From Yuukianura sp. NJ FZ-2021 (Eukaryota), in NCBI GenBank assembly GCA_046563655.1, contig CM102290.1, forward strand, positions 12,276,001 to 12,340,000: 64,000 nucleotides of DNA, given 5' to 3'. The position numbers were made by a program, and so were the translations under genes. This document shows positions 2,735-40,200 of the stretch, one piece after another; the stretch's first letter is position 1, and each line of letters opens with the position of its first letter. The notes below the pieces were generated by a model. That model saw only the letters and a program-made list of their open reading frames with translations, was not told the origin of the DNA and made no database searches.

Positions 2735-3641
2735 ATTTCCGAAGTTTTTTACAAAACCCGGTGACCTTATGACCCCGCACTCGGAAACTTTTCTAAAAAC
2801 AGTTTTCCAGGAACTTCAGCGTCTTCTACCTCTCAGTTCCAAGTCTTAATAAAACACATGTCAGTTTGATGTTTAACTATAAACTTCGTAAACCAGGGGC
2901 AGCTTTCCATTTCATGTTAATTAAATAACAAAAACCAACTCAAATTAGGCTATCCAAATTCAAATCTCCATGTTTCAGTATTTCCTGTCAGCAGTTTTTC
3001 CAATTTATGTTCTAACAAAACATAACTTTAAAATACTGGATCAATCAAAACTGGCCAAAATCGTACAATAAGGATTGAAGTTATTCAAGGCCATCGGTTG
3101 ACCATCACGAAATGCCAAAGACTAGTAGAAAAAATTCATAAATTGCAGCATAGAATCAAATGAAGGAAAAAAACTAATATAACAAGCCGAGTTTAGTGGT
3201 TTCTACAATGGTCACCAAAATTTTGAAATTATAAAGTCTTTAAAAAAACGACAAATTATTGTAATTTTGGAAACGTTTCGTGTAACATGGAATTCTGTTG
3301 ACTAACGACTTGACTAAAGCTTAATTTACGTCATAACCTGTGGACAGTGACATTGTCCGATGTCAAGGATACATCCAAAGTCATAGAGTTTCAGCGAAGG
3401 TCGTCCTATGCCACGTGGGTAAACTTTTTTTTTAAAAAAAAAAACCTGGCATTTCATTTTCAGATTTTGAAAATAAATCAAAACTGAAAACTTCTTTTTT
3501 TGAAAATCATAATACAAACATACATACTACAACAGCATAATGGTGAAGGCGGTGTCCAAACGTCCGCACTGTCCATTATTCGCAATGTAGTGGACATTTA
3601 CCCACCATGTCGCCCCAAAGCTACTCCAGAAGCTGGGGTTT

Positions 3642-4318: not shown

Positions 4319-7114
4319 TTAATTTATCTTGAGTGCAAGAACTACGTCGTCATAAAGCCCAGAAGAAGCAGAGTTGAGGGTCGGTCGTCGCTTGGCCGGT
4401 TTCTCAGGTGACTTCTTGCTCGGGGACTGCCCGGGAGTTGAGGAAGATTTGGATACAGTTTGAACCGGTTTGCTTTCAGGAGTTGAAGTTCCATTCAGAT
4501 ACGGTTGTTGACGGCCTTTTAGTTGTTGTTGGGCGGTAGATGGAGACATGGCGCTCACAGCAGACGACGGTCCTGCTTTTTCGTCAGCAGAAGGCAATTG
4601 ACTATCATTGCTTCCCTCCTGTGGAGTCAAATGTGGGGACGAGGAGGGAGACAGTGGTGGACTATGCTGCTGGCTTTGGCTCGAAGGTGCATGCACTGGA
4701 GAAGGGATAGTGAGAGCAAGAGGTGTCGTCACCTCAGCACCAGCCCCAGACAAACCGTTCTTCATCTTTCCCGTGGCCTTGGCATAGTGAATCACGGATT
4801 CACCCAGACCGTTGTTGTTGTTGTTAGTGTTGTTGTTCCCGGAGGCCCTTCGCTGTTTTTCTTGTACAAAATCCGGAAACATGGGTTTACAGTCTCGGCA
4901 GTAGAATTTCTTTGGGACGTTCGCTTTTCGGAGTCTAGCACAGCTCATATGATGCCAGACGAAACAGTTCTCACATTCAATCATCGGGCGTCCAGCGAAT
5001 GGCTTTCCACAGAAGCAGGTCACTTCGTCCCAACTCTCATCTCGATCATCATCTGAAACCAGGAATGTAGTTGGATAAGTGACACTAATAAATACAAATA
5101 CTTAACGTAGAAAGTGATACTTAACATACCGGGATAGAATAGATTGGAACCTTGACTACGACGCCCATCCAAATGGGATGAAGTGCTCGATGCACTTGAA
5201 TGAGTTCCTTCACGTGACTCTCCAACACTATTGAGTGGACTTGAAGTTTTCCGTTCTCGGCGTCTCCCGCCTTTCATTCGGTTTTCGTCAACTTTCCCTC
5301 CTCTTGTTCCATTTTCGTCTTGACGGCTTTGATTCGGTCCAGGAACAGTCTCAGCTCTGAGTCTGGGAGGAGTTCCTGATGCAGCACCAGCGGCCGCCGC
5401 CGGAGGACATTCAAGTTTAGGGACCTTCGGTTTACGTCCGGGCTTATTCTTAACAGTTGGAGTAGTGGTTACAACAATTTTACGCTTCTGTGGTGGTCTT
5501 GCAAATCCAGTAGCCAAATCAACCTTGCTTCTAGGAGTGGGCTTAACTTTTCGTCTCCCTCCGAGTGCTTGAGTGATGGGCTTAAACTGAATAAGGATTG
5601 AATAGGTTACTAACGATACAAAATATAAGTAAAAAGAAAATATTGTGGAGTTAACTTACTTCGTCGTGAAAGCCTTCAGGGTAGTTTGTATAGTTGAGGA
5701 TGATGTTGCAGAAATCTAGGAGAGTGTTATTGTTGACAGGTTCAGGTTGGAATTGCTTCGGTGCTGGTGATGGTGGCGGTTGCTGCTGTGGCTGTTGTTG
5801 CGCATGCATCGACAAGTCCTGTGCCTAAACACAAGTAAGTTATGATAAGTTCAAAAGAGCGACAGTTTAACCTCGGAGTAAATTAAAAATAAAGCATATA
5901 CAAATACGGATGTGTCACCGGCATTGCTATTGAATACCAAATGCTAACTTGTAAACTCTCTGTGTCCATTCCTCCTGTTCATAAATGTTATAAAGTTTAG
6001 TTGGATTTATTACCTGCTGCTCGGAATGATTTTGATTTGCACTTCTAGTAGCAGAGATAGATGGAAGTGAATCTTGTCGAAATCCGTCGACTTTCTCAAA
6101 TGTATCTGTAAAAGACAAGAAACAAGGTAAATCCAAGGCATTTGTAATTTGTTTATAAGCTTGTTTGGGGTTTTGTAAAAACGCACATTACAATAAGGTG
6201 ATTTAGCATAGAAAGTGAAGTCAAAATGAACATTCATCTTGGGAATTTCGTCTTGATTCTAATCAAAATTCGATTATCGGTTATTACCATGCCTTATTTA
6301 CTTTGATTCCCGCAGATATAGCCTCGTTATATAACTATTTGGCTACTCATGTTAAATGTCAGAACCTGTGAAATATATGGTATGAGGAATATACTTACTT
6401 ATGCTCATCCGTTATACGGCAATGTCAGTCGCTAAATAACAAAGTCTTTAAAATTCTCAAAACTAAAATAAATATTTATATGGCCTAGAAGTCTATAAAA
6501 CTAATAAAGAATTTACTACCTTTGTCTTTGGTATGAATTGCCTCATTAAATTCCCTCACCTCAATATAACCTTCTACTACTGACAACTTGTCAGAGACGT
6601 GTCAAGTGTAATCGTTCCTTTTGTCCCCTCAGCTGACCTAGGAAGTTAGGTTAAGATGGGATAATAGCGCAATGGATGGTAAAGGATGCCTCCGCATGGT
6701 TCAGAGTAAACTTTAGATGATTAACCACAATGTTAATTATTTCACGAGGATACCATTTACGCACAAATACAGGAAAGCAAGAATGTTATAAACCAAATGT
6801 ATAGTTTTTCTAACCTGACCCACGACTGGCTACGCCGTTGGTAATAGCCAAATTGATCGGTTGAGACTGAATCATTGGACCAGCCGAATAGTTTGGACTT
6901 GCTGAAATATAAGAAACCAAAAATAAATTCAAGTTATAATCCCATTCGCTCTCGATAATCCAAATATTTCTCAAGTTATTAGCCACAACTGAACCAATAA
7001 TTAGCCAGCTGAGGCTCGTTTGGTAGCACAAGACGACATAAACTTACCTCCATTCCCGTTTCCTCCTTGAATAGCCGGAGGCATGGCTGCTGCTGGAACC
7101 GTAAAGACCTGCAT
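4319..7114 (-). CDS. PHF13: PHD finger protein, PHF13/PHF23-like (about 6 coding exons)
   Basis: PHD finger [45 protein letters not shown] is close to the PHF13/23 signature. N-terminal [14 protein letters not shown] resembles the PHF13 DFxxFCxxVLxYxxY motif. The 5' exons 7114-7048, 6901-6815, ~6106-6014 and 5825-5660 splice in phase. PHF13 and PHF23 cannot be distinguished here. Confidence 0.85.
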
Positions 7115-9720: not shown

Positions 9721-12627
9721 TTACGGTTTGGAGGGGAGGAGCCCTTTGCTCTCCAGAAAGGCAGCATTACTGGGTTCTCGGCCCAAGAAGTTATGGAGCA
9801 TGTCCAGAGCATCCATGGATCCTCCTGGTTCCAGAATGCAGCGACGGTAGTGAAGGCCGACTTCCGGATCAATGCAGCCAGTCGTCTCAAATGTGCTTTT
9901 GTACATGTCCATACTGAAGACTTCGCTCCACTGAAAACAGCAAAAAAAACAAAATCACAATCGTTCTTCAAAATTTTTAAAAGCGACGTATTACGCGGTT
10001 TCTTACCAAGTAGCTGTAGTATCGGCCGCTGTAGCCGACTGCAAGGTGATTAAAGTTGGCAGACATGTTGGTTCCCGGGATAGCATCAATCCCCATGCAA
10101 TCCTACAAATAACGACACACTAATTAATAGATCACAGTTTTACGAAAGTTAATTACAAGTTATCAATTGGTTCAGCTAAGTAAAGTATTTTTCTTATATT
10201 AATAACATCATAAAGTTGTTTACCTTAAGGATTTTTGCATAGACTTCCTGTGTGTCACACCGCCCGCCACTGTGAATCTGTTGGTCAAAAATGGCAAGCA
10301 CAATTTGACGCAAATTGAGTGCTGCCATATTAGCACGACGAGACTTGACCAATTTTTCCATCAACTCGGGTGGCATCGGTCGTCGAGTCTGCGTATTAAA
10401 ATTTTTGCATGTACTAAAGATGTACTAAAAAGTACTAAGAAAACTATAGTCTTATTTAAAAAACACATACCGCGTAGTGCGATGCAATCAGCCGAAGAAC
10501 TTCCGGATGCCAAACCCAGTTTTCGAAAACTTGCGACGGAGCTTCCACGAAATCCGTTTCCACCCGAGTTCCAAAGAAAAAGGCTGTCTGAGCCTTGGAG
10601 CACACGGTGTGCATCAAATGCCCGAATTCATGAAAATACTGCTCCACCTACAGGAAAAAAAAAGTTTTTTAAACGTACATTCTCTTCATTTTGAGTTTTA
10701 AAGTGTCCCTTTACCTCTTTGTGGTCGAGAAGAGACGGTTTGCCCAGCTTTGGTCGACTGAAATTAGTCAACATCGCCACAACGGAACACTGCCGACGTC
10801 CCAAGGCATCAATACATCCCATTTGGAGAGGAACACAGCAAGCATGTCCGAACTTTCCAGGACGCGGGAACAAGTCAAGGTAGATGTAGCCAATTCGCAC
10901 TTTTTCAACTGTGTCATTCACTCGGTACTATAAATTCACAACATGTTAGCTTTTTAGCATAGAGCAAGAACTAAACTCAACTTCAAACTTACAACAATGA
11001 CATCCTCGTTCCAGCGTTGAGCATTTGGCATGAGTGTGAACTTGAGATGCAACAATTTCTCAAAAACGCGAAGCATTCGGCGAGTAACAAACTGCAAGGG
11101 GAAGTACTCCGTAACTTCGTCCTGCACGACTGTAAACATTTCCTCTTCCACAAGTGTCACGTAGTAACGAAAATCCCAGAACTCAATCTTGTTGTCAAAT
11201 GGAAAATCAAATCTCTCACACTGCAAATAACAAGAAATTAAGAATTAATTAACAAATTAACAATTTAACATTAATCTTCTCCGTGAGCATCGTACCTCAG
11301 CCTTCTTTAATTCCAGCATGCGTGCTTTTTCTGTCTCCCAGACTGGTTTCAGTTTCTTTGTCAGTTCCAGCAAAAACTTCTTAACATTGTGTGGATTTTT
11401 GGCCATAAGAACATCCTGTAATAACCATAAATTGAAACATTAGTGTTAAATGTACATAAAAGGCGGAAATTCGCATGAAAAGGCAAGTTCAAACCTGCGT
11501 GAAGGCAGCATGATTTTCATATCCCAGCAGCTCCGCTTCCTTCTGGCGTAATTCCAAAATTTCTTCAAGGAGGTCCGTGTTTTCCGGAAGACACTTGGAC
11601 TGGTAATAATTTTCCATGACACGACGAGTATTTGGAACTCGGCATTTACGCGTAATTGGAAAGAAGTGATGCGGCTTCAAGGTCACAATGTACTTCTTCG
11701 TTGCGTTGTCCTAAACAACCAAAATTTCCTAAATTTACTAAGACAAGAAACGAACTGATAATGCATACCACTTTCAAGCTTTCGAAAAATGAGTACGGCA
11801 TTCCATCCAGTTCCTAAACACAGAAAATAATAAATAAAAAAACGTTGTAGTAACTTCATTTGTCTATAAAATTTAAATTACGAAAAAATAGTAGAAGTTA
11901 CCTCAAAGTCGAAGAGTACAAAAGACTCCTCCTCAGCCAAGTTCCGAGTAAACGCAAGTTGGAGTTCAGTCATTCGTTTTTTGATGGATTTAATCTGATT
12001 CCGGACTTTTTCATCAAGATGGAGTCCTGTAAAACCAAGATTCCAAATAAGAATTACACATGATTTGTAGTGGATGCAAAAACGAATATGACAGAACCGT
12101 ACCGTTTCGCATTCCGTTCCGGATCATGTGGTCCAGAGTTCGGATGTACTCTGATGTGAGATTATCTCGTCTGCAATAGCGCTCCCTGTACTCCACCAAC
12201 TTGTCAAAGACGTCTTTACGCATGCTCATCTCCACATTGGCTTCATCGAGAAGGCGCGTAGCCTCAACTGCGGCGTCACGAATGCGTTGGCTCTCCGAAA
12301 CGTGTCGTGGAAAGGTGACCAATGATCCTGCTGCGAAACTGTATCGCTGGACCTCCAAAAGTGGCTGAAAATCAAAGAAAAGAGAAGTTAGAGCTTGAGC
12401 TTTTAGTTTAAGGTATGATTTGGTTAGTAGATTACCCGCATGATTGTTTCGTATGAGAGTGACTTCGTGAAGGCAATGTCGTTGTAAATCCTTCGGGTTC
12501 GAGCGATGATGTCGTGAGTTCGATTAAGGATTTCCTCGACTGTGTAAATTCGAAGGTCCCAGTTGTGGTAAACCCCGTTCGGCCGAATTCCACAGGAATC
12601 CCAGGCTGGCATTTGGCGCATCATCAT
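9721..12627 (-). CDS. THOP1: Thimet oligopeptidase / neurolysin-like M3A metallopeptidase (multi-exon)
   Basis: [10 protein letters not shown] zinc motif, [72 protein letters not shown]. First in-frame ATG is at 12627. Confidence 0.92.
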
Positions 12628-14613
12628 GGAAATGATGCAGCAGCAACGCAGAAAAGTGATCCACAGCGACAGAAATGTTGTCCACGAAACGAGCAAGAAG
12701 AAAAGACGACTCCGCGACGTAGCTTGACTCAACACTGAAGAAGGCGTTCTTTCATTTACAATGTTTGTTCATAAGTATCGCTCACTCAACAATTTTCGTT
12801 GTCCTAACAACCACAATCACTTTAACATTCACTGAGCAGAAGGATGATTATTGCTTTGTGTGATTAGTAATTATAATTGATGTAGTCACCCTTTTTAGTT
12901 CAATGACCACTACTACGGCTTTTGCTGTCATTCTTCCAGAAGTTAATTCCGAATTACTCAAATTAATAGTTGCATCGCATTTCGTTGCTTGAAATTCGGT
13001 TCCCGGTGGTTGTGTAAGATGACAACAGCTGCTGAAAAGTATAAATCATATTTTCGTTAAGACTGCTTAGATAAATAAGTGCAAGGTATTTTGTGAGTTA
13101 CAGAATTACCGTACATAGCAGTAAGGTAGTTATATTGAAGCAAGCGATCTATTAGCGGCTTAAAACAGTGTTGATTGAAAGTGATTTGGGTATCGGAGCT
13201 ATTGACAATATAACTCCTCCACCCTCCACTTCCGCATAAACAGTTGATGCTGGAACAGTGAAACCAAGTACTTAATTAGTACTTAATTTAGTTAGTGTCT
13301 TTGATTAACTTCCCCCTGCTCCTCCCAACCTTATGAAACAAACAAACAAACCTGAGAAATGCAACTGCGAAGTTGTTTTCAAAGTCTCAAGCACATGGTC
13401 TCTATCCGATTGTTTTCATTCATCCAAAACTTGACATCAGGGAGATAACAAGATTCAGACATTTGCGCATCAAAACAGAATTTTATAATCCGTTAGGTTA
13501 TACCACACCTACTAGACTGGTAACTTGTTAGTGTAACAAAAAGTTCAGTTGTGTAACACAACTGAACATAATTTTTGAGATACTACTTACTTGCATCAAT
13601 CAACCCAGATAATTTTATAATACTACTTTATTCAAAATTAAATAATAATTTAGTTTTCTGCTACACTAATTTTTCGTACAAAAGTGCAACTGTCTAACAA
13701 AGAAATGTTCTCGGACTCTAGTCAAGGTCAAGGTAATCAATGTTCTGGATTTGTCCGTCTGTCACAACAAACACATTATTACACGGCAATTTATGAACCA
13801 AAATCATAATTTCCGACGATTGTTTAGTTTGACACTGTTAATTTGGCATGTTTCAAATTATTACCATGTCTTAAACTAACAATTTCCATAATATCCATTT
13901 TTAGTGTCAAAAAAATTCATGACTTCCCTTTAAATTTTTAAAAATCCGACTTTCAAAAGTTTTTTTTTTTGGTTTGCTGTAAATTGGTTTATTTTTGTTA
14001 TGCTCACTGGAAACTCATTTGAACAAAATTAGAATTTTGGGGTGTATCGGATCCCCAGATTAAGGTATTAAGGTTGTGATAGAAAAGTGAGCAAAACTCA
14101 GAAAAAAATGAATTGAAAAATTAATTGACTTGCTATCGTATAAAGCTTTGAAAAAAAAAGAAAGTTCAAGTATTGCAAAACTTAAAGTTAGGTTTGGTAA
14201 AACGTTACCACACCTAATCATTGAAATACTACCTCAAATTTATGGAGTCTGAGCAACTGTTTAGATGTGATTTTTAAGAATGCGAGGAGTCCGAGCTGTA
14301 CAATCCTAGGAATGCGAAGTGACAAAAAAAAAGATCTGATGAATCCGAAATCCGACGATTAGTCAGCCACTGTGGGTTGAATTAAGGTGGCGATGGGAGA
14401 TGGTTAATCTCACTGCCTTGTTGTGAATCCTGTGCCTCCTGTTCGAATGCCGGCTGATTAAAAAAAGTTTTGATCGTTTTGTCCAGTCGGAGTAAGTTCC
14501 TGTAGTCAATTTAAGCAATAAGCTTGACACTGTCATCAACATGCTTGTCACATTCTTGCTTTTTAAGACGCAGCACTAACTCTGTTTACTTAATTTCTAG
14601 GTGGACTATTAAA

Positions 14614-16204
<1,591 letters not shown>

Positions 16205-17029: not shown

Positions 17030-20000
17030 ATGTTCCACTCGTCACTTGATAGTCAGGTCATCCAAGGCTTGCCGGAACACACAATCTCGGATACAATCTC
17101 GGAGTCCTCAGACGGTGCAACGCTTATGTCTCTCTCACGTGAAGATTTGTCGCAAGTTGGAGCTGGACCGATTCGGGAAGACGTGAGGGTCAGCCGCAAG
17201 AAGCTGGAGACGCTCATTTTGAAAGGTCAGCACTAAAATTTCAATTTTCTTTAGATTTTATACAAAACTGACCAGGGAATGCACAGTTTGACGTTCACGG
17301 ACAAAAATTTACGTTAGGATTGCTGCCGCAGACGATCGACTAATGTCGTAGACCACACATTGACCTACGTACCTAGAATTTCGACCAATCACAGTCCGTT
17401 CTACTAGCACAAATACGTTTGAATCTGGGCACTTAAAGTTAGTTAGCTTTCTTCATTGTCATTTTCATCTATTGATCACCATCTTTTGGCGTCATTAGCA
17501 AGTTCATTGCCATCGGTGCGTCAATTGACGACTCCGTTAAAAAAGTAGGTCAACGACTTCGGTTCTGTTGTTGTTTAAATTTAAATTTAACTGCAATTCT
17601 TACTTGTGCGGACATGGAGAGTATTGCCCTCAATTTACATAAGCTTAACATAGCTCCGCTTGCTGGACATGGACATTTTTGTGGTATTGCATCAGTAGTT
17701 ACTTGCCGCAAACTAATTAAAAATAGCTCCAATTAGAATTTTCTCCAGGAGTCACTGCTCCTTTGGTCTAAGACGGTATAGTAGCTCTCTACGTTTTTAG
17801 CTAAACTGTCTTAAAGTCTGGAATTGTTAGCATTTTAGATGTTGTTGACCTCTGCGTACTATGTTTAGACCAAGTTCCATAAATTTAAGCTTCATGTGTA
17901 GCATAACCTAATTTGTCGATCGATGACCCACAAATCCTTTCATTGTTGGCTTTCTTTTCATACTGGAGTGACCTAATCCGGTCAGCGTCATCTTTTTATC
18001 AATGGTCTCTACGCCTTTAAGAAAAAAGAGAGCAAAATAGTACCAACCATGGCGTAAGTGACGTCATGATTTAAAAGTCAGCAGCAGAAGGTCACTGAAC
18101 TTTGCATTGATGATGTCATAACTTCCGGAAGAGGGTAAGGTGGACTAAATGTCCCGTTCACTATGCTATTTGTGGGGGTTGGACAGGAAGTTTCTCAATA
18201 CTACCCGAAGTGTTGGTCCACTTAAAAAATTCGGGTCATTGACCTTTGGAGACAAAGAAGTCAATGTCCTCTTCTGATCGTCTGACTCGGAGTCTCAAGA
18301 TTTCTTGTCAAAATCAGCAGTTTTTTGTTCGAATTTTGTTGGACATGACTCGGTTCTCTTGACCTCAACCAATTACTAATTAAGTGGATTTTCTTAGAAA
18401 GTGACTATATTTTTTAGTAGGATTTTACTAAATAGTAAGATTGAGAGTAATAGACATAATGGTTGACTGTAGTATTTCTGGAGATCTTCCAGCAAAGACA
18501 TTCCCTACAAATGCGCTAGCTGCCTTCGCAGATGCAATGTTTCATCCAGCTATTCACGAATGTTTGTTTTCTCAAATTCTAGAACGAGATGATGCTTTCA
18601 CTGGCAAAGGATTCATTGAAGCTGTAAGTCAATTTGCGAAATCAAAAATCTTAAATTCTTGAAAATTTAGTATTTATCTGTAACGTTTTTTCTGTTGTTC
18701 CCAGGTTATGGAATCCACGAACACGTATATCGAGTGGCCATCCCGGATGAAAATTGGAGAGAAGACAAAGAAAGGTATCGATTTTACTATGTACAATTTC
18801 AGTTTCAGTTTCACTTTATAAGGAAAAATTTCAGCTATGAATGTTTGAGATTTTAAAATTTTGAATTTTCTGAATTTTAGACCTCTTTGTTCGGATTTAT
18901 GGACATGAAGAAAATGAAGTCAGCGAAGCCAAAGCACAGATTTTCCAGGAACTTGGACCACAACGGGTACAGTTTGAACGATGCCACGAATCTTAGAGCC
19001 TGAAATTTAAAAACAAAAAGAGGTTTTTAGAAATTAAACTTTGATTGTCTGTGTTTTTAGGATTTGAAAATTACGCTTAAAATGGAGATTAGTTACACTG
19101 ATCACTCGCATCTGATTAGCTGTCGTGGAGCAACGATTCGCGAGGTGATGGACGACACTGGTTGCCACATTCATTTCCCAGACTCAAATTGCATGTCGAT
19201 TGAACACAAGATAAACCAGGTTACAATTTCTGGGGCAGTGATTGATGGTGTGGAGCAAGCTCGTTCCCGTGTTCGGGTAAGCGGCAAATTTCAAAATTTC
19301 GGCGTTTCAATAATTTTCAACCATGGCTGATTTTATTTCTGTTTTTAGGAACTGAGCCCATTGATTTTTCAATTCAATTTACCGGTAATCCAAGCTCGAT
19401 TTGACGTGCACAGGAACCCAGACGCTCACAACGTTTTCATTGACAACATTCAGACGACTTACAACGTTATGGTATGGACGGCTTTAATTTTTTTTAATTA
19501 AGAATCAAAAAGTAGAGTATTATTATTTTTTTTTTGAAATTCTCATAGGTGACTGTTCATCCGCCGAACAAACTTCAGCAGACGACCATCGCAGTCAAAG
19601 GTTGCGAAATTGACCATAATCAAGTGAAGGAAGCAGTCGGAAGAATTATAAACTACTTTGCATGCGATACTCCGGTTAGTCACTTCACTTAATTCACAAA
19701 TCACAACTTCAAAACTTTGAATTTTTGACATCTAATTTTTGAAAATTCCGTTTTCAGGTTTCTCCGATTTTGGTTGAGTCTACAATGGAACTTACGCCAA
19801 TTCAACTCTCATTTGTTCGCTTCGTCAACGATTCCAACATTCACGCAATCATGATGGGCACTGGAGCTAAAATTGTGTTTCCAGATTTGTCTGATGGAAA
19901 CATTCAGCACATCAAGCGATCACGCATCTTCATCACTGGAGAGTTGGACAGCGTCTACTTGGCTCGCCAACAACTGATTGTAAGCAAAACATTTTCAAGT

Positions 20001-21912
20001 TTTTTTTTGTCGAATTTAAAAAAAAAATATTTCTGAACTTTGTTGCAGGGATGTCTTCCGCTTCAGTTGATCTTTGACTTGCCTGATCCGTATCCACTTG
20101 AGTGGGAAACTATTTGTCAAATTTGTGCTGAGCGGAATGTCCACGTCTATTTGATCAACAGCAGCCGAATTCGTTCTGGATCAAACTCTGTAGCAGGGTC
20201 AGGACTTCCGCCAGTTCCTGAACGTGGACGTACTGTGCAGCTCATAACGGCTGAGCGAAATGCTGAAGATCTCATTGAATCTCGACGTAGGATTTTGGGT
20301 GGAATTGAACAGCCAACAATTGCTAGAATTCCACAAACTTATTTTCGGCGTCACATTCAACCACCACCAGGTACCATGTTCGAACACGCATTCGCAGCAT
20401 TTTGACAAGCAACTTCTCAAACAATCATGCAAATGTTCATGTTTCTAAAATGAGTTTAACGCAGCCATTTTTTTCCTAGGACATGTGCCGTTTGCTGGTA
20501 ACTTGGCACCGATGATGCTCAATAGTCCAAACATGCTGTCTCCAGTGCTCTCTCCATCGTTGTTGCCACCGACGCCATTTTCAACGCAGTTCTGCTCACC
20601 ACATATGTTGCATCTCCAGTCTGGACATCACGATCAATCATTGATCGGTACTGGATCAATTACTCCAGGAGCTGGACATTGTGGAAGACCATTTCAAGGG
20701 CTTATGCCGCACAAGTACGGAAGAGACTTCGGTGCAGGACTTGATGGACGCAGTCCAGTGGGCATGCGCACTCCGAATTTTCATGGAAGTCCATTGGCTC
20801 CTGTCAATTTGTTGCCACAATTTGACTTTCAGCAAAGTCGTCGAGCTCCAGGATTCGAACACTCAAATGCAATTTCAGACTTTTTTGTCTACCCACCAGC
20901 GGAGGACGATAGACGACAAAACCCGCTGAAGGACAAGAAATATTTGGCAGAGAAGGGTAAATCTAAAAAATCCGTTCTAACCATTCACTGTAACCACCGA
21001 TGTTCTTAATTATTATAGCGCCTGATTGTAATCGCTTACATCCTTCATTAACCATCCTATGGGTTTGAGTTCTAATTCCAAACTCTAATTTCTTTTCTGA
21101 AAGCAAATTTAGCTGAGGGTGGAGGTGCTTGTCATCGATGTGGGGTCGAAGGGCACTTTTCTAAGGATTGTCCGGACAAGAGTAAGTAGAAACTCCACTT
21201 TCATGATCATGACTTTATCTTTCGGTACAGATTTTTACCAATATTGTTTTTTTTTTGACAGAAGAGGGAGAGGGAGCTGTCGGACACGATGGAAAGCCGA
21301 CTAAACGCTACACACCCGCCAATTTTGCAGAAGGTGAAGACGCTTTTCAACGACAGAACACAGACTCAGGAACTGGCATCAACTTCTCCTCCTACGCAAC
21401 CATTCCTGTCAAGGTCAGCATTCCATTGGCTCTCTGTTTTACTTTTACCATTTTGAGGAACATTTTATTTCGGTCTGTTTCTCTCACAACAGCCAATCAC
21501 AATCAGTTTCTCAATTTGGAGTTTCACTGTAAAAGCTTTCCTTGACTTCAAAATTTCTAAAAATTTTCGTTTTTTTTAGTCCTCCGATGAGCTAACGGCT
21601 GCGCGTGAGTTGTCTGCGCTAATTGCTGCGGCGAAAAATGAAGTAACTGGTCTTCGTCGACAAGTAGTCAGCCTGGAAAAATATAACAAGGAATTAGAGG
21701 AAGATCTGTCAGCTAGAATCAAAATTCGTCGCAAAATTGAGCTTCAACTGGATCTTGAAAGAGTGAATCACACGAAGACGAAACTGAAGCATGAACATCT
21801 CGTCTGGCTCAAAAATCGATACGAGGAGAAGTTGAGTGACCGAGCCACCCTCCAGGCAGAGCTGAGCCTCGCCAAATCCGAGTTGGCTAAACAGAAACGA
21901 CAATTCGATTAA
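17030..21912 (+). CDS. Bicaudal-C-derived KH protein with Vasa-like CCHC/GINF segment and C-terminal coiled coil (13 exons, ~813 aa)
   Basis: BicC motifs RVSRKKLE, VMESTNTYIEWPSRMKIGEKTKKD, LKMEISYTDHSHLI..TGCHIHFPDSN, ELSPLIF, GCLPLQLIFDL and DKKYLAEKA. Exons 17030-17225, 18583-18623, 18705-18774, 18881-18966, 19061-19276, 19349-19471, 19549-19674, 19758-19979, 20049-20370, 20480-20956, 21104-21181, 21262-21413 and 21580-21912 join in phase with no stop. Confidence 0.85.
17762..17872. repeat. Short imperfect inverted-repeat element in intron 1 of the BicC-like gene (possible MITE remnant)
   Basis: TTGGTCTAA...ATAGTA at the left end and TACTAT...TTAGACCAA at the right end. Confidence 0.3.
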
Positions 21913-22622
21913 TCTGATAGTTTAAAATACAGCCTAATTCACAGTTCATTGTATTGAACCGCCATTTTTGTCACCGTTTGGTATTATGGGTAATGATCTT
22001 TAAAACAATGATTTGCCAACAACTTGTTGTAAACAGTTTCACTTGGCCTCTTGAATTATTAGCATGGAATGAGTTTTAGCACAATTGTGTTTGTCTGCCT
22101 TAATTCACAAAATCTTAATTCACACGACGACTGACTGTAACTTTGTGGGGCCAACTACAAATCTAAAACGCTGATATATTTTTAGAATTTTTAAACCCAA
22201 AAGCAAACCTCTCACCCAAAAGTCGTTCAAAATTATTAGGTTGCTTTTGTTTTCGAAGGTAGAGTTATAAGAAATACTATTTATGAACTTTGCCTTTTGA
22301 ATTCTTCAACCTTTCAAAACAATCGCTGGCGGTGGTGAGTCACCACTGGGTGGTTACAAAAAGGCGGTGGTTGGTTTACTGTGTTTGGTGTTTTTTTTCA
22401 AAAATCACTGAAAATTTTAATGTCATTCTGGTAAGATTTAGTGATAAAAAGGCCCATCACGAGTATGGAGAAACACGAGCACTACAATGGCTCATGTGAA
22501 CTTCAACCCGCGTGTATTTATCTAGTTGTAACATACCACCTAAAATACATTAGCTTCTGATTTACTTCCGGTAGAATTCCGCTAAAACATACGTTTAATT
22601 CCTAATCCTAACTAACAAAGCA

Positions 22623-23470
22623 TTATACCACATTCTCATTCTCATTATCCAAGTTGCAATAACTTCCATACATCATATTGCAAGATGCACTGTGATCTAT
22701 TTCTTGAGTGCCGCCATATTCTTTAGTAAGTTGATCCTCAGCTATTTCCTGGAATATCACGCGTTGCCATTCTTTTTCATCCGAGTTGAAAATCTTAACA
22801 CGTTCTACAGTATTTCGACTCATAAAGGGCTTGAGCAGGATATACAAGATCGGTAACATCCAATTTGCTAAATGAAAATTTAAAAAAAAAAGTTAAATGA
22901 AATAAAAAATGAAATAAAAAATTCAAAATATTTTTGAAAAATGATTTTGTCGAAATCAGATTAACCGTCGTACCGTTGATGACATAGAATGATTTTAGCT
23001 GCTGAGGGTACAATTGCTCACTTCGCTTTGTCCATTCAGACAGAGTTAAAATTGCTTAAAAAAAGAAGATTGTTTTAACAATTATTAATGTTTTTTGAAA
23101 TTACGCTTCATTTTATATCTTACTCTGCCGATGCATGAGTTCTCTGATTGTGTAGCCCTTCAAATCAAAAATAATTATAACACCGTTGATGGCGCCTTGC
23201 GACGATTCTATTGCATCCTTCAATCTGTCTTGATTGATTTCAGTCATTTGAATTGCATGACGCAGAAAGCTGTCTTTTTTGCCACTTTCAATGGCGTCAC
23301 GCAAGCGCCAGCGGCCAAACGGAACTAATAAAACTTTTGAAAAAAAAACACACGAAAATTAGATAGTAAACGTTACGGAATACTTAAGAAATTTGTTTAG
23401 TACTTGGATGCCCGTTCTTGTCAAATCCATTGTTAGCATAAGGAAATAAGTTGATTTTCACTATCGCGTT
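22623..23470 (-). CDS. CRAL-TRIO / SEC14-like lipid-binding protein; first exon not located
   Basis: Four in-phase exons: FPYANNGFDKNGHP / ILLVPFGRW..IIIFDLKGY / YPQQLKSFYVIN / LLKPFMSRNTVERVKIF..IAEDQLTKEYGGT. These are typical SEC14-domain motifs. Confidence 0.88.
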
Positions 23471-26736: not shown

Positions 26737-29700
26737 ATGCAGCTACACAACTTGTCACTATGTGTTCTTGTTCTGACTGTTTGGCTCGTGACATACTCAG
26801 GTAAACTGTTGACATGATTCTGATAAATTCTGAAAATTTTTGAGATTTTGAAAAATTTTTTGAAATTTGATTTCGTTTAATTTTGAAAACAAATTGGTTT
26901 CAGGAAGCTTGGAAGTAATTCTTGCGAGGTGTTGCAATTTGGGTGTACGATGGGCGTGGGACAATAATACTTGCAGCCGATTCCCAAGTCCAGTGCACAA
27001 TGTGGCCAACGAGCAGCAAGGACCGTGTCTTTCTACGATTGAGGCTTGTTGCCAACGAAATTTCAGGTTAGGCTACTATTGTGTCATGTTAAGCAAAGGT
27101 TTTCACTTTCTAACTCAGCGAGGTCAAAGGTCAAGTCATTTCAAATTGTCATTTTGTTTGAATCTTATAGGGAGCGGCAATGTACCAAGGGCCATGACAC
27201 GGCCAAATCAGGCGGGGAATGTACTGAAGGGAGTGGAGTTGGTGGATCCTATCACAAGGTGAGGAGTTGTAACTATAAGCGGGAATTTTTGTTTAAATTA
27301 GTGCAAAACATTGTATTGTCGTTTTTTCGTGTTGCTATTTTAGGATTGTTGCGAGGGATGTAAGCTTGGCTTAATTGCCGGATCGATGGGCCTTCAATGT
27401 GAATTTGCTTCACTAAAAGTTGCTCTGGGGCCACCGTGGGATTCTTCTTTGACGAAATGCTGCCTACAAGCTGGCGGCATACCAACGTCGCCACAAAGAA
27501 CCACTACGGTTGCGTCATTTACTTCTGCATTAGCTGCATTAACTTCATTAACTCAACCTTCGACGACACGTAAAACATTTCATCGGCTTTTCTGCCGAAG
27601 TGTATTGTTGCTTAGCAGCGATTCAGGAATTGCGTGTAACTTTTGGTTTTTTGAAAATTGAAGGTCCTATTGCTGGAACAACAAGCTTAGCAACGTCAAC
27701 GCCAAACGATATTTGTGCCCTCTTTCCCGGACAACTGTGTTCTCATATATGTATTCCTGATGGAAACACGTTCAAATGCGCATGTCAGCCTGGATATCGT
27801 CTTCTACCGGACGGAAAATCGTGTTTCTTGGACAACATTGCTACACAGTCGACGTAAGGAGAAATTAACCAAAATGAAATTATGTTGATGTAAATTTTAA
27901 CAATACAATTTGAAAGCAGTACGGAGAGTTCAACTCAAAGTGGGAGAGACAAACAATGTCCAATTGGATTCGCGTATAACGCGCAGACGCAGATATGTGA
28001 CGGTACGTTTTCGGTTTGCTTTTTGGTTGACTAATTTATAAATTACGATGTCCATGATTTTCCTGCTTTGTTCCACAGATATCAACGAGTGTGAAATGAA
28101 TGCCTGCAGAAAGTTTCCATACAAAACTTGCGTAAACACAATTGGTTCATTTCTGTGCGAACAGGCAGAGCGAGAAAACGAGCCGAGTCACCAGTGTCCT
28201 CCTGGATATCGCCACAATGACGAAGCTGCAACCTGTGTTGGTAATTTTTGAAACCATTTTGATATCAATTTTAAAAAGTGCGAGAGTTTTAAAATTTACC
28301 TTATTCCTAAGATATCAACGAATGCGAAGAGGGAGTCCATATTTGCGATTCGACGCAGTACTGCATCAACACTCCCGGTGGATTCGACTGTCAGAGCAAA
28401 AAGGAGTTCAGTCGCTACAACTGTCCCGCTGGATACAAGTTTAACAACAATACGCTCAACTGTGAAGGTAAGTGACCTCTGCCTTGCTGGATTACAATCT
28501 AACTCGTCTAGCTACGTCTTCCATGCTCTCAGCAATGCTAATGTGTGTTGATTTTTTTTTTGCCATTACAGACGTAGACGAATGTCAGGAGTCTCTGTCA
28601 TCTTGCAGCGATTATGAAGTTTGTCGAAATACTGCTGGAGCATACGACTGCGACATTCGGTGTCGGGATGGTTTCCGTTTCGACATTCGTCTGCGGTCGT
28701 GCCAGGACGAAGATGAATGTCTGCTGGGCACACATGACTGTATGGTTTCCCAGGAGACTTGCGTCAATGTTCCAGGAAGCTACCAATGTCACCAGATCCA
28801 ACCGTCAGAGAATAATTGTCCGCCGGGCTACGAGCCTAACCAGAACTACACTTTTCTATGTCAAGGTCAATTGGAAACAACATTACTTGAAAGATGAACT
28901 ATGAAAGATGTTCAATGCTGTAATGAATCTGTTGCTTCTTACAGATGTAGACGAGTGTAAAGCATCCTACCTGCATACATGTACGGCGTCGGAGACTTGT
29001 ATCAACGAACTCGGAGGATACCGATGTGATCCGCCTGTTGTAGATGCAGACTCGTCCACTACTGAAACCGACGTAGACATCACGGACAATACTATTCCCG
29101 GAAGCAGCGGTAAGAATTGCATCAGTGATGCCATTTTCTACTTATCAAAATGTTGAAATGATCGAATTTGAAATGTTGAATAAGATTTTTGAATTTTGTG
29201 TTCACTAGGACGGATAGAACTAGTAACACAAGTACCAACAGAGCATTCCGGGTACAAGTTTCCTTCAACTGACCCGCCGCGACGGCACAATGAACCGCAA
29301 GTGACGTCATGCAAACTGGGCTTTAGAATGCGTCTAGCAACCGTCGGACAGGAACCGGGTTGTGAAGGTAGCCAAGCACATTATTTTCAAAATTGCAATT
29401 TCAAAGTGTTAATCATTGAATTGGCAAAAATGGTGCAGATATCGACGAATGCAAGGAAGGAACAGCATGTGACAGTACTCAACTCTGCCAGAACACCATT
29501 GGAAGCTTCTATTGCCACTGCAGAAGTGGATATTACCGGGACCCTGTCACCAAAACATGTCAAGGTCAGAAATCAACATTTAGAATTTCTTAGAAACAAT
29601 TTTTTTTTCGAAGCGATGAAATTCTTTTTTGTCCTATCTAGACGTCAACGAGTGTCAAACTGGGCAACACACTTGTACATCCAGTCAGCGATGTGACAAT

Positions 29701-31944
29701 TCTCCAGGCTCCTACAGTTGTATCAGAATCACAGGCTGTGGCACTGGATACACTCTGAATACTGGAACTGGACAATGTGAAGGTATTAACTCACAAGGAT
29801 CCACAAAATTTTGACTTTTATAATAAAATTTTGATTTCGATTTGAGTAGATGACGACGAGTGTCTATTTGGGAACCACAATTGTCATGCGCTAGGACCAG
29901 AGTGGGAGTGTAAAAATACGCTTGGGTCGTTCCGATGTGACAAAGCTTTGAAGTCGTGCCCCATTGGCCTTAGTTTGGCTCCTACTGGAGACTGTCGCCC
30001 AACGTGCAATCCAGGATTCCAGTTCAACTCTCGAGGAGAATGCATTGGTAATTTAAGTTACTAAAATAACTATGGAGATATTCCGTGGATTTTTGCATTT
30101 TTAAATTTTAGACATTGACGAATGTCGCCAAGTGCCTGGAGTTCGAAGTATATGTCAAAGACATCAGCGTTGTGTGAATACTGAGGGAGCGTATCGCTGT
30201 ATGTCTGAAATCATTTGTCCTTCGGGTTACGAAGCCGATGGAACTGGAACTCGCTGTGTTGGTAATCGTTAATTTCTATGCAAAATCAAATTCTTCAGTT
30301 TGTGAATAATATTTTTGTTGTTTCAGATGTAGATGAATGTACAGTCGGTGGACACGACTGCCGAAGTAACCAAGAATGTATCAATCGTCCTGGTGGCTAC
30401 GTCTGCAAATGTCCTGCAGGATACACCATTTCAGAAAGTATGGAATGCGAAGACATTGATGAGTGCAGTCGCTATGCTGGACATGTGAGTCAACTCGTAT
30501 ACTTCCTACAGGCTTTCAAAAACTTCCAAAACTAGAAAAGTTTGGTACAAAAATTTAATTCTTTTATGGAATTGATATTTTCCAACTTCTTTTTTGTCAG
30601 GTTTGCTCATCCAACTCCGATTGCTACAACACGCAAGGTTCGTTTCGGTGTATTTGCAAAACTGGATTTGAACAAGGTTCAGACGACCAAACTTGCAAAG
30701 GTGAACGAATTTATATGAATGATAGTGGATTAAATTTATGCTAAACTATTTATATTTGTGTTTTTATATTATTTTATATTTGTTGATTCTTTTAATTTTT
30801 GATGTAGACGTGGATGAGTGTGCGAATTTGCACAGAATCTGTGATCAAAACTGTCTCAATACTTGGGGCTCATACCGTTGTACCTGCACTACAGGATTTA
30901 CACTTGGCGCTGACGGACGGTGAGGTCAGAGGCCAATGACCTCATATTTTTTAACCACTGCGATTCTAATTTATCAAGTTCTGCACTTAATCTGTAACCT
31001 TTGTCCAGAACCTGTCAAGACGTAGACGAATGTAGACTAAGTCAAGGCGAGTTTTTGTGTGCCGGACGATGCATTAACACGCATGGGTCATACAGATGCT
31101 CATGTCCCGACGGCTATCAGCTCAGAAGTGACAACCGGAGTTGTCAAGGTTGGCAAATATTTCTGTACACATTGGACAATTTACGAGTTTATTAAATTTC
31201 TGCTTCTTGTTTTCTAGACATTGACGAGTGTGAACGTAGACCGTGTCGGTCGGACGAATCGTGTTTGAACATTCGCGGCGGATTTCGCTGCAACCGATTG
31301 ATATGTCCTGCGGGTTACGAAAGGGAGGGGTCAGATGAGTAAGTTCTGTGACATTTCTAAGAAATTGTGTCAACGTTGTAGTTAGTTTGTTTAAATTTTA
31401 AAATTTTCAATTAAAATTTAAAAAATTCTTATAGCCGTTGCAAGAAAACTATTCACTGTGCCGAAGGTGACACGGAATGCTTGAAACAACCGCTCACAGT
31501 TTCCAAAAATTACCTCAGCTTCACGTCCAATGTTCGTCTGGGGTCACTTGGTTACATTGACATGTTCACAATGAAGGGTCCTAGTTGGCCTGGAGCAGTA
31601 ATGCACTTCACTCTGGAAATGAAAGAAGCCAGGGCTGCTGCTGGGATCGCTGCAGTAACACGAGACCATTTTCTTCTCAGGCGACCATCTCCGCATCAGT
31701 CGATCATTTCCCTCATCAAAACAATTCCAGGCCCACAGGTTAGAAAAACATAAAAAATAAGCTTGTCTTGTATAAAATTGAGTTATTTTTTGGAAAAGTA
31801 TTTTTAAAAAATTTTTTTCTTAAATTTTTTTTAATGTTCCAGGATGTGGAATTGGAACTATTGATGGAAGTGTACCACAGAGGGGCTTATGCCGGATCAG
31901 CCCTTGCTCAAGTCGTGATTGTCGTTACAGCTCACGAGTTCTAA
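26737..31944 (+). CDS. FBLN1: Fibulin (fibulin-1/2-like) extracellular matrix protein
   Basis: Signal-peptide exon [21 protein letters not shown]. Anaphylatoxin-type CC modules, a long run of Ca-binding EGF repeats (DINEC/DVDEC), and a C-terminal fibulin globular domain ending [10 protein letters not shown]. Confidence 0.9.
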
Positions 31945-37225: not shown

Positions 37226-40200
37226 ATGAAGAAAGCAGAAATTAGTTTCCCCAGGGGGAAAAATCCGATTCCGTTCCTGGGCTCGTCAACACCTGATTCG
37301 TCCAGCAAAGCCAAGAAATTGAAATCCAAGGCTTCTTCCGAAGGAATCACTGCTGTAAAGTTGAACAGAGTGGACGATGACCTGTTCAAAGTAAGTCATT
37401 GTGATTATCTTGTTCACCAATTAACTGTAAACTGCAGTGTTTATGATTTGGTATGTTTGCTTGTTGTAGGTATCCAAATTCAAGGGGCCGGAAGGGAAGA
37501 GCAAGAAGAAGAAGAAAAGTAGCGGTTTGACTTCTGATGAAGTTGATTTATTAGCTTCCGATACTGCTCAAGTCAAAGTGAAGAATGTGATCGACGTGTT
37601 ATCCTATGAGGTATCGAGCGATGCTTGTTTGATAAATGACTGTCCACTTAAATTGCCTTTGCTTTACTTACTACTTGTTTCAGACAATTACGGAAGGGAT
37701 GTTGAGCCTTGGCCGAATCATCAAAGTACGTGACCATGAAATTTTAGTCAGTCTACCAGGCCGGACGATGGGATCTGTACCAATTACCTCAATCTCACGT
37801 CCATATACGAAGGCCCTGGAAACACTCACTGCAGCTGGAAATTCAGAAGACGTGAGTTTACGACTTAACTTACTGCTTCGATCACATATGGTTCAACTGT
37901 AACTTGATTAAACTTTTGGTTAGCCTATCTACGGAGTTGACAGTCTGTTCCACGTAGGCCAAGTCGTATCTGTCGCTGTTGTTGGAGTCAAGAGGGAGGG
38001 ACACTCCGTTCGCGTCACGCTGTCAATGTCACCCAACGATTTACAAGCCGTTTACACTCCTGACAGTATCTGCGAATCCATGATTCTCACTGGAGCTGTC
38101 GCCAGTGTTGAAGATCACGGGTATATAATAGACATTGGAGTAGCTGGAACCACTGCGTTTCTTCCCAAAGAACAAGCCACTGGTTACATCCAACATCAAA
38201 ACCACAACAAGCCTTTAGGTAAGCTCAGAGTTAATGGAATTCCTTCTATTCAATTCTGTTGTGAAGTTACTTACAATATTGATGTTTCATACAGGTATCG
38301 GCCAACTTCTTAAATGCAAGGTACTGTCGTGCAGGTCAGCAGGGAAAAGCAAATCGGCAAAGCAGGCCCATGTGAGACTGACTCTCAGCCCGAAGGAAAT
38401 GAAGAAGACGCGATTGACTTTAGAAACTATCACCAACTATCAATTACTTCTTCCAGGAATGGAGTCAGAAGGGACTGTAATGACGGTAAGATCAGTCTAA
38501 GAACTTTGACACCGATTTGTCAATCACGCTTGAAAAAATCTTTCAGTTTTTAACCTTGATAGACTATGCAATTCCCTTAAATTTTGGAATAGTTTGTTTC
38601 CTTTTTTTTTCGTGTAAGAGTATACGTATATCATATTGCCCCAAAGACTGCATCGGTTGTCCGTCCATTGTCCGCCTCCTCCCGATTAACATTTTGCTGC
38701 AGATACTAGGATATACCATGTTAATTCCAATAAAATTAACGTTTCTACTGCTTGAATCACTAACTACTGGTTTAGGCCAGTTGTGGTGTTCTTCATTTAT
38801 ACAGTTTATGTACACTTCCTTAGCAGTTGACAGGCGTTTTGTCTTAATATGATTCACATTGCCCCAGTATTCAATTCCAGTCTACCATGTGTCTCAACAT
38901 ACCCCAATGTGAAATACTTTCACTTGAGAAGTATACAGGAAAGTTTTACTCGTTTCATCTTTGTCCGATCCTAAGCATTAACTATGTTCTAGTACTATAT
39001 GAAAGTAGACTACTTGTCCAAATGCTAATCTAACTTTCAATTCTTGTCTAATTTCCAGACGCACAAGACCGGACTGAAAGTGGATTTTCTAGACACGGTT
39101 GGTCACATTCACCTGGACCACATGGGTGACGCCTGGACACCTCCCGAATCCATTGAAATCGGATCTACCATTTTCCCTCGAGTGCTCTACACTTTGCCCA
39201 ACTCAAATAATCCAGCCTTGACCCTACAGAGTAGACTCTGTCAGAAGAAGATTGATGCTGGAATTTCACAGTCAACACTTACACTTGGCTCCAAACTCAA
39301 AGTCAAAATAGCCAGGATTGAGAAGAGGGGACTCATCATTCGATTCGAGGGTGGGGAGAGGGGGCTAGTGGCCGCAACACGCTGCTCAGACAATTCTGCC
39401 CTTACGGACGAAGACATCGCAAAAGCATTTCCTGTGGGTTCTTCCCATACCTGTTGTGTTCTGGAGTACAGTTCACTGGACAACATATACATAGCTTCAT
39501 TTCAACAGTAAGTCTACATTCATACTACTTATCACATCATGTTCCTGGAGTCATTCTGTTACTGAAAACGATTTCACGTCTGTTTTAGATCGGTGCTGAA
39601 TCAACCTGTAGTTCGGATAGATCAGCTCTCAGTGGGAGAAGTCGTATCATGTGAACTGAAGGCCTGGAAACCCAGTGGAGCCGTTGTGGCTGTAGGATTG
39701 GCCAAAGGTTTCATTCCGAAACTTCATTTTGGAGAACTTGTTCTGAAAAATCCAGCAGTCAAGTTTCCCGTAGGAAGCAAATTCAAAGGCCGGGTAGGTT
39801 GTATAGAGTCTCACTATACCCTTATTCAAGGTTCACTTTGAATGCATTATGTTTTGTGTACAGGTATGCCGGATTGACCAACTCAAGAATCAGATGATGT
39901 TAACTGCCAAGAAGAGACTGGTGAAGAGTAGTCTCCCAATTCTTTCTACTTTTGAGGAGTGTACTTACGGAACCCTTGCAGAGGGCGTCATTAGTCGAGT
40001 CACGGAATACGGACTCAATGTATATACCATTGGCGGACTTCCCGTGAGTCACTTTAGGAAAAACTGTTGTTGGTAATTAGTGTTAAACTTATGTTTAACT
40101 ACTCTCAGGCCTTCATACCCGCTTCCAAAGCGACACTGGAGGACCGCAGTCGCCTTCCACAACTCTTTTTGCCTGGACAAGTTGTTCAATTTCACGTCCT

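Follow-up and report, generated by a model that had tools for sequence, protein, structure and literature searches.

The gene described here lies on the + strand of a 64,000-nucleotide stretch of the genome of Yuukianura sp. NJ FZ-2021 (contig CM102290.1 of assembly GCA_046563655.1, positions 12,276,001 to 12,340,000), which is referred to as the window, and extends from position 17030 to 21912 of it. It consists of 13 exons, all with GT-AG splice sites, which join into one open frame of 813 codons. By homology, exons 1-10, which encode the first 627 residues, are a Bicaudal-C (BicC) homologue with the KH platform and the linker, and exons 11-12, as judged from residues and gene structure alike, are copied from a vasa-type gene together with intron 11; since the intron was copied along with these exons, DNA itself and not a retroposed transcript would have been transferred. 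Taken together, the locus is probably a real chimeric gene that was made by DNA-level exon shuffling. Homology switches twice, each time at a phase-compatible intron: the phase-1 intron 10 leads into an exon that is in phase 1 at both ends, and intron 12 is in phase 0 on both sides. The exons and the three introns in question, all on the + strand, are listed below (slashes mark splice sites).

Exon 1, 17030..17225, +: starts with the ATG at 17030 and ends in RVSRKKLETLILK at the donor AAG/GTCAGC; placed by tblastn of the springtail BicC proteins P0002, P0003 and P0005 onto 17063-17224 (E 4e-16 to 2e-18).
Exon 2, 18583..18623, +: 41 nucleotides encoding E-RDDAFTGKGFIEAV; acceptor TTCTAG/AA, phase 1.
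Exon 3, 18705-18774, +: forms, with exon 4, the N-terminal KH-like module of BicC.
Exon 4, 18881-18966, +: exons 3-4 were placed by tblastn of P0001-P0005 (58-67% identity).
Exon 5, 19061..19276, +: canonical KH domain, Pfam KH_1 E 1.1e-11.
Exon 6, 19349-19471, +: BicC KH-like region, placed by tblastn of homologues.
Exon 7, 19549-19674, +: BicC KH-like region, placed by tblastn of homologues.
Exon 8, 19758-19979, +: Pfam KH_1 E 1.2e-5.
Exon 9, 20049-20370, +: BicC KH-like, KH_BICC1 E 0.0064, below the curated cut-off; for exons 8-9, tblastn identity to the homologues is 47-53%.
Exon 10, 20480..20956, +: Pro/Ser-rich BicC linker ending in NPLKDKKYLAEK plus G; donor AGG/GTAAAT, phase 1.
Intron 10, 20957..21103, +: 147 nucleotides, phase 1; first switch point, from BicC to putatively Vasa-derived sequence.
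Exon 11, 21104..21181, +: 78 nucleotides, phase 1 at both ends; one CCHC knuckle, Pfam zf-CCHC E 1.2e-7.
Intron 11, 21182..21261, +: 80 nucleotides, phase 1, after CP.K.
Exon 12, 21262..21413, +: 152 nucleotides, phase 1 to 0, ending in GTGINFSSYATIPVK; donor AAG/GTCAGC, phase 0.
Intron 12, 21414..21579, +: 166 nucleotides, phase 0; second switch point.
Exon 13, 21580..21912, +: terminal exon of 333 nucleotides and 110 residues, phase 0; stop codon TAA at 21910-21912.

All 12 intron boundaries are intact and compatible in phase, the acceptors are T-rich, and the introns measure 69-166 nucleotides except for one of 1357 nucleotides, in a window with a GC content of 38%. The length of 813 codons applies with exon 2 placed by homology at 18583-18623, where the homologues have only ERD..(K)GFM(E/D)(T/K)L in the alignment; a longer exon 2 (18436-18623), which would give 862 codons, was rejected because its first 49 codons have no counterpart in the homologues. 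An earlier note on this DNA had predicted an intact frame of about 813 residues, in which BicC-like exons run to DKKYLAEK at 20956, the counterpart of the BicC motif KKLLATKAM, and are spliced onwards through the junctions 20956/21104, 21181/21262 and 21413/21580. The frame was recovered in full, its BicC part ends exactly at this position with the phase-1 donor, all three junctions are exactly in-phase GT-AG sites in the genomic sequence, and the collembolan homologues align with the window up to the motif KKY(L/M)A.KA and then diverge from it.

Two KH_1 domains, a weak match to KH_BICC1 and BicC proteins as the best relatives identify the KH and KH-like domains at the N-terminus as an array of the Bicaudal-C family. 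Of 24 candidates from a database search with exon 5, 11 proteins reached E <= 1e-3, and the seven that rank highest are springtail or springtail-like BicC proteins with 78-82% identity; the named relatives are P0001 from Orchesella cincta, P0002 from O. dallaii and P0005 from Allacma fusca, and the next named one after the springtail-type seven is from Anopheles (51% identity). In a colinear tblastn of BicC homologues onto the window, exons 1 and 3-10 are covered, and over 351 aligned columns of the KH region the window is 63-70% identical to springtail BicC. This homology ends at the donor of exon 10 (tblastn of P0001 and P0002 extends to 20958 and no further), where NPLKDKKYLAEKA of the window stands opposite NPLNDKKYMAVKAMYN of the homologue and the motif KKY(L/M)A.KA is common to both. 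In collembolan BicC, the motif is followed by a MYN...EW(A/S)G.GFS(K/R)T block and then by the SAM domain, neither of which is present in the window. Thus, the BicC proteins of O. cincta, O. dallaii and A. fusca resemble the window gene in the N-terminal motif, the KH/KH-like array and the linker, but differ from it by SAM_1 (PF00536), which was found in all eight full-length exon 5 relatives; the window gene instead has a knuckle, a flank with a GINF motif and a predicted long helix. The GXXG loop of the canonical KH domain in exon 5 is not intact in the window: it reads SCRG, compared with GCRG in 7/7 springtail-type homologues and GRGG in Anopheles, the first glycine being kept in 8/8 aligned homologues. 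Neighbouring invariant sites of exon 5 are changed as well (DSNRMS to DSNCMS and KSNQVTIAG to KINQVTISG).

Beyond intron 10, exon 11 encodes one knuckle of the Vasa/DDX4 type with the full C-X2-C-X4-H-X4-C pattern. Exon 12 belongs to no Pfam family; its pattern GKP..Y.P...EGEDAF....GTGINF..Y..IPVK, which includes the GINF flank, is that of the N-terminal flank of Vasa/DDX3-type proteins. When exon 12 was compared exhaustively with 1.84 billion representatives by HMMER, 15 sequences matched at E <= 1e-3. Four of these are exon-sized eukaryote fragments of 58-129 amino acids (P0013, P0014, P0018 and P0020), which align over the full length of the exon at E 1.4e-8 to 3e-5 (56-61% identity). In these fragments, CCHC knuckles are followed by GPDGKPRE.Y.P..EG..AF..RN.THSG.GINF..Y..IPV., and exon 12 keeps 19 of the 22 columns that are invariant in the four Vasa-type fragments and differs at three (alignment A1). 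A GINF-type flank directly N-terminal to the helicase core is described as a feature of Vasa/DDX4 in PMC7912733, and the Nematostella Vas2 antigen given in PMC7515634 has the order last knuckle, KP, Y.PP, acidic stretch and GINF, which is also the layout of exons 11-12.

The gene structure of the putative donor is represented by L001, a 7167-bp metagenome contig that contains P0013. Its gene comprises seven CCHC knuckle exons, a flank exon, DEAD in three open reading frames (ORFs) and Helicase_C in two, and among solved structures its helicase part matches Drosophila Vasa best (2db3, E 3e-40), followed by Bombyx Vasa-like (1.6e-35) and DDX3X (4.9e-29). This identifies L001 as a true vasa-type gene. 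Positions 21103-21419 of the window match L001 2609-2944 with E 8e-19 in tblastn and E 2.5e-24 in tblastx, stretches of 41-50 nucleotides are 78-80% identical, exon 11 is 52-72% identical to the L001 knuckles and exon 12 is 58% identical to P0013; the homologous counterparts of exons 11 and 12 in L001 are thus its last knuckle exon and its GINF-flank exon. The intron between the two follows CP.K and is in phase 1 in both genes (...ACGAAGC/GTGAGT...TTGCAG/AAGAGGGAGAGGGAG in L001 and ...GACAAGA/GTAAGT...GACAG/AAGAGGGAGAGGGAG in the window), the first 15 bases of the exon 3' of it are identical, and a phase-0 intron follows IPVK at the same codon boundary. Both introns that mark a Vasa-type gene structure, in phase 1 after the last knuckle and in phase 0 after IPV, are hence present in the window. 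The two loci differ in their surroundings: L001 carries seven knuckle exons upstream and, downstream, a complete DEAD and Helicase_C core, the exon after the IPVK intron beginning with STGENIPPP... and running into the Q motif, whereas the window has a single knuckle, no helicase core and BicC exons upstream. In the earlier note, exon 11 had been read as a CCHC knuckle exon, the peptide of 21104-21413 as Vasa-derived and both switch points as coinciding with introns; the knuckle match, the four fragments and L001 agree with this, down to the position and phase of the introns between knuckle and flank and after IPVK. An alternative in-frame acceptor of exon 11 at 21112/21113 (TTTAG/CT), 9 nucleotides downstream, corresponds to the acceptor in L001; splicing may in fact take place there, which would give a product of about 810 instead of 813 residues.

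Two further observations concern L001 itself. An apparent GC donor (AAG/GCGAGT) is found 3' of the flank exon (2938-3024), and a multi-finger C2H2 zinc-finger gene lies downstream of the vasa-type gene (5900-6800). Two other loci, L005 and L006, matched over 12-15 residues only and were not used.

Neither a SAM nor a helicase domain was found in the 64,000 nucleotides by Pfam search of ORFs, tblastn or tblastx, as the earlier note had anticipated. The Pfam scan of 148 of the 156 window ORFs of at least 75 amino acids revealed no SAM, DEAD or Helicase_C family; the other eight lie within 19061-21909, in the gene itself, and six of them are overlapped by exons that entered the scan by their own coordinates. 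No credible match resulted from tblastn of the tails of five homologues against the whole window (E <= 50): the top one, with E 0.42, is located inside an M3 peptidase gene. The C-terminal SAM domain of the BicC family was thus not found in the window. The same applies to the DEAD and Helicase_C core of Vasa/DDX4: the helicase exons of L001 have no tblastx match in 20957-22620, and Vasa helicase remnants 3' of 21419 were rejected (no tblastx match at E <= 10). By its KH region, the chimera would accordingly count as a BicC-family member that lacks the SAM domain; because it has no helicase core, it would not count as a member of the Vasa family.

An ORF at 18447-18582 (MVDCSISGDLPAKTFPTNALAAFADAMFHPAIHECLFSQIL), just 5' of exon 2 and in frame with it, weakly resembles the start of the SAM domain of the homologues (tblastn E 2.3-2.7) and could be spliced in via the AG at 18434-18435; its GC content and codon score are low, and the resemblance is probably due to chance.

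Exons 11-13 have the properties of coding exons of this locus. Their GC contents are 0.50, 0.51 and 0.46, compared with 0.42-0.52 in exons 1-10, 0.34, 0.30 and 0.33 in introns 10, 11 and 12, and 0.355 in the 3' flank. A codon-usage score trained on 1505 codons from Pfam-supported exons of the window yields log-odds of +8.5, +16.8 and +11.4 for the three exons, the proposed frame being the best of six each time; for the introns and the 3' flank, all frames score below zero. None of 20000 mononucleotide shuffles of their joined 564 nucleotides was free of stop codons. Furthermore, their splice sites fall within the range of introns 1-9, and the donor of exon 12 is identical to the homology-supported donor of exon 1. 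A different explanation holds that exons 11-13 are unused and represent a recent, still open insertion from a vasa locus, together with an ORF that is a relic or due to chance, BicC being SAM-less and truncated in intron 10, or the whole copy being a decaying duplicate. Read-through of the exon 10 donor (ORF 20449-21009) adds only 17 codons up to a stop at 21007-21009, exon 12 deviates at three Vasa-invariant columns, exon 13 has no relatives in the searches, and the BicC part has a long branch with many changes, including the GXXG glycine, as detailed below, all of which would suit such a scenario. However, it leaves unaccounted for the intact frame with its 12 intron boundaries, the exon-like GC content and frame-specific codon bias that the introns do not share, the 19 conserved columns together with the complete knuckle pattern, and the outcome of the shuffles, and we regard it as unlikely.

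The frames of the three exons also bear on the possibility that they are a separate small gene, consisting of a Vasa-derived knuckle and a helical tail, 3' of a truncated BicC. The gap of 147 nucleotides looks intergenic, and short tandem genes are known to occur. However, no Met codon occurs among the 187 residues that exons 11-13 encode, and the frames of exon 11 (21076-21189) and exon 13 are closed by a stop just upstream without an ATG, that of exon 13 by a TAG which doubles as acceptor; exons 11-13 are therefore translatable only as the continuation of upstream exons, and the only ones available are those of BicC, 147 nucleotides away. Moreover, this distance is too short for a promoter and a first exon, and exon 11, being in phase 1, needs one base from an upstream exon, which renders a separate gene most improbable. 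A join of exon 10 to exon 12 would likewise be in frame, and joins of exon 10 or 11 to exon 13 are out of frame and meet a stop after three codons.

The occurrence of two homology switches within 620 bp could also indicate an assembly artefact, in which the BicC locus has been wrongly linked in the contig with fragments of a vasa locus and with a third one. Both mis-joins, however, would have to lie in introns that are normal in length (147 and 166 nucleotides) and compatible in phase, the window contains 0 N and no repeat at the joins, and no vasa exon is present 3' of 21413, as would be expected after a simple mis-join; we consider such an error very unlikely. Capture by a transposon was rejected as well: the segment is not bordered by direct repeats, only four weak inverted pairs were detected, and there is no second copy in the window.

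The terminal exon is predicted by AlphaFold2 from the single sequence to form one helix from residue 2 to 109, with a mean predicted local distance difference test (pLDDT) score of 96.5. It contains no Pro and one Gly, 38% of its residues are charged and 16% are Leu, consistent with a long uninterrupted amphipathic helix. The earlier note had described a heptad-rich last exon of about 110 residues: the single predicted helix agrees with this, but a crude count of our own, which is not an established predictor, did not place the regularity of the heptads above that expected from composition: the occupancy of a/d positions by LIVM, which reaches 0.75 in the best 28-residue window, was matched by 397 of 2000 shuffles. 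A coiled coil is thus a reasonable expectation for exon 13 and not a result. Nothing below E 0.4 was found among solved structures, none of 1179 candidates from a word-index search of proteins of 194-2000 amino acids reached E <= 10, and L001-L006 contain no relative. In the ESM Atlas, exon 13 scores 0.94-0.96 with coiled-coil fragments of HOOK, CCDC144C, filament, GOLGA2 and CCDC171; of the top ten matches with a family, one shares family or clan with the best, and the matches appear to reflect generic features of helices, not kinship. Exon 13 starts with SSDE (21580-21591), compared with STGE in L001 (3025-3036) and VSGE in L002, and 7 of 12 nucleotides are identical to L001, which is not significant; its first codons and acceptor may be a remnant of a vasa core exon.

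Several findings weigh against a functional chimera with a Vasa-derived segment. The top-ranked match of exon 12 overall is not one of the four fragments but P0012, with E 4.7e-12 summed over 6 stretches, and P0012, P0015-P0017, P0019 and P0021-P0026 are long proteins with 2-9 matched stretches each. In P0019, P0021, P0024 and P0025, these are tandem repeats with the unit DG..(K/R)YTP....G.DSF, which correspond to query residues ~4-47 and lack GINF..IPV; all 11 long multi-stretch matches were set aside as repeat-driven on the strength of these four sequences, and part of exon 12 thus resembles an unrelated repeat motif. Vasa/DDX3 was not returned by phmmer of exon 12 against solved structures at E <= 10, a word-index search with exon 12 among longer proteins gave 0/21 candidates at E <= 10, and only the exhaustive search found the Vasa-type relatives. 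The exact ORFs of the window are absent from both protein searches able to list them, and no independent annotation of the gene model came to light. For exon 13, the lack of a homologue and the unremarkable a/d regularity count on the same side, as does the lack of AATAAA or ATTAAA on the + strand within 700 nucleotides 3' of the stop codon. Finally, the BicC part carries 37-39 private substitutions compared with 11-23 per comparison lineage in three quartets, and, of 206 columns without variation in seven homologues, 31 are changed in it, among them that of the GXXG glycine; the excess of private substitutions, with the replacement of this Gly by Ser, could mean relaxed constraint.

The other searches with exon 12 returned chalcone isomerase as the only match among solved structures (E 0.06), which was judged to be due to chance, and a bacterial cadherin-like protein as the best match in the ESM Atlas (score 0.84, chance level). 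With respect to the BicC part, the branch leading to the window has a length of 0.41, compared with 0.16-0.32 from root to tip in the other lineages; Tajima relative-rate tests with a distant outgroup were not significant (p 0.09-0.76), and in the BicC tree the window falls within an unresolved polytomy. The BicC copy of the window may therefore be a fast paralogue or a deep orthologue.

The following neighbouring genes were identified, the last six by Pfam matches of ORFs.

CRAL/TRIO gene, 22626..23358, -: convergent with the chimera; Pfam CRAL_TRIO E 6.4e-8 on ORF 22626-22892.
Reprolysin-type metalloprotease gene, 320-550, -.
PHD-finger protein gene, 4322-5101, -.
M3 peptidase gene, 9724-11244, -.
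Ferrochelatase gene, 14515-16200, +.
Fibulin-like EGF_CA/Fibulin_C gene, 27552-31750, +.
RRP5-like S1-domain gene, 37924-39508, +.

The CRAL_TRIO gene lies about 700 bp 3' of the chimera and leaves no room for further downstream exons; the 713-nucleotide interval 21913-22625 is shared by the 3' ends of the two genes and contains neither AATAAA nor ATTAAA on the + strand. None of the neighbouring genes identified by Pfam has a germline-related function.

In the scenario proposed here, two vasa-type exons, encoding the last CCHC knuckle and the GINF flank, the latter standing just before the helicase core in Vasa, would have taken the place of the canonical tail of BicC, the conserved block plus the SAM domain, at a phase-1 intron, and a terminal exon without relatives in the searches would have been added across a phase-0 intron. 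A simpler origin is possible, in which 21104-21912 came in one piece from a vasa locus with a SOLO-like nested alternative terminal exon; the nested exon would then possibly have been located in the vasa intron after the GINF exon. According to PMC4561730, canonical BicC binds messenger RNA (mRNA) via its KH domains, and its SAM domain polymerises, concentrates and silences the bound mRNA; the same source describes SAM as dispensable for RNA binding itself. In the chimera, the KH array and one extra CCHC knuckle would bind mRNA as in BicC, and the GINF flank is probably only a linker, because there is no RecA domain for it to pack against. The head-to-tail polymer driven by SAM would be lost, and any self-association would depend on the long helix, which, as a coiled coil, would yield a dimer or small oligomer and not a polymer. 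The chimera would either compete with canonical BicC or diversify its function. The architecture of the gene, its two homologies and the positions and phases of its introns are seen in the sequence; splicing, translation and oligomerisation of the chimera, as well as a role in the germline, are what we infer from it. It is doubtful whether the chimera acts as a functional, lineage-specific germ-granule protein that combines the BicC KH platform with an N-terminal Vasa module and uses a coiled coil in place of the SAM polymer, and whether the targets of BicC are thereby routed into another type of ribonucleoprotein assembly.

Two known systems share features with the proposed chimera. In SOLO of Drosophila, N-terminal vasa exons are joined to unrelated exons without a helicase domain; this occurs by alternative splicing within the vasa locus, and the start codon and RGG exons of vasa are shared (PMC2819681). 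The chimera likewise combines vasa exons with unrelated exons and has no helicase; however, it contains the core-adjacent vasa exons and not the first ones, and these lie inside another gene, behind a BicC body. GLD-3 of C. elegans is a germline BicC-family protein, for whose KH region no RNA binding was observed in the study cited there (PMC3352585, PMC4561730). It resembles the chimera in that the KH platform is kept and works without SAM polymerisation, but has no Vasa-derived segment, carries an unrelated C-terminal part and is an old nematode paralogue. To our knowledge, GLD-3 also has no SAM domain. In the partly covered literature on Bicaudal-C, vasa, chimeric genes and vasa in Collembola, taken without supplements, no report of a BicC-Vasa chimera was found.

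BicC and Vasa are among the most conserved germline and ribonucleoprotein regulators of animals, and their domain layouts are very stable. As an exon-shuffled gene and SAM-less BicC variant, which the locus appears to be, the chimera would be a natural gene in which the SAM polymerisation domain of BicC has been swapped for vasa exons and a long helix, and, because the intron of the donor gene is still in place, a clean textbook case of exon shuffling by compatible intron phases. Polymerisation by SAM is described as necessary for clustering and silencing of bound mRNA (PMC4561730); the chimera would be a natural domain-swap experiment, suited to asking how BicC function depends on the way in which the protein oligomerises. 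A 2026 review infers an independently evolved germ plasm for Collembola (PMC13120685), and it is tempting to speculate that the chimera, should it act in germ granules, is among the molecular changes underlying it.

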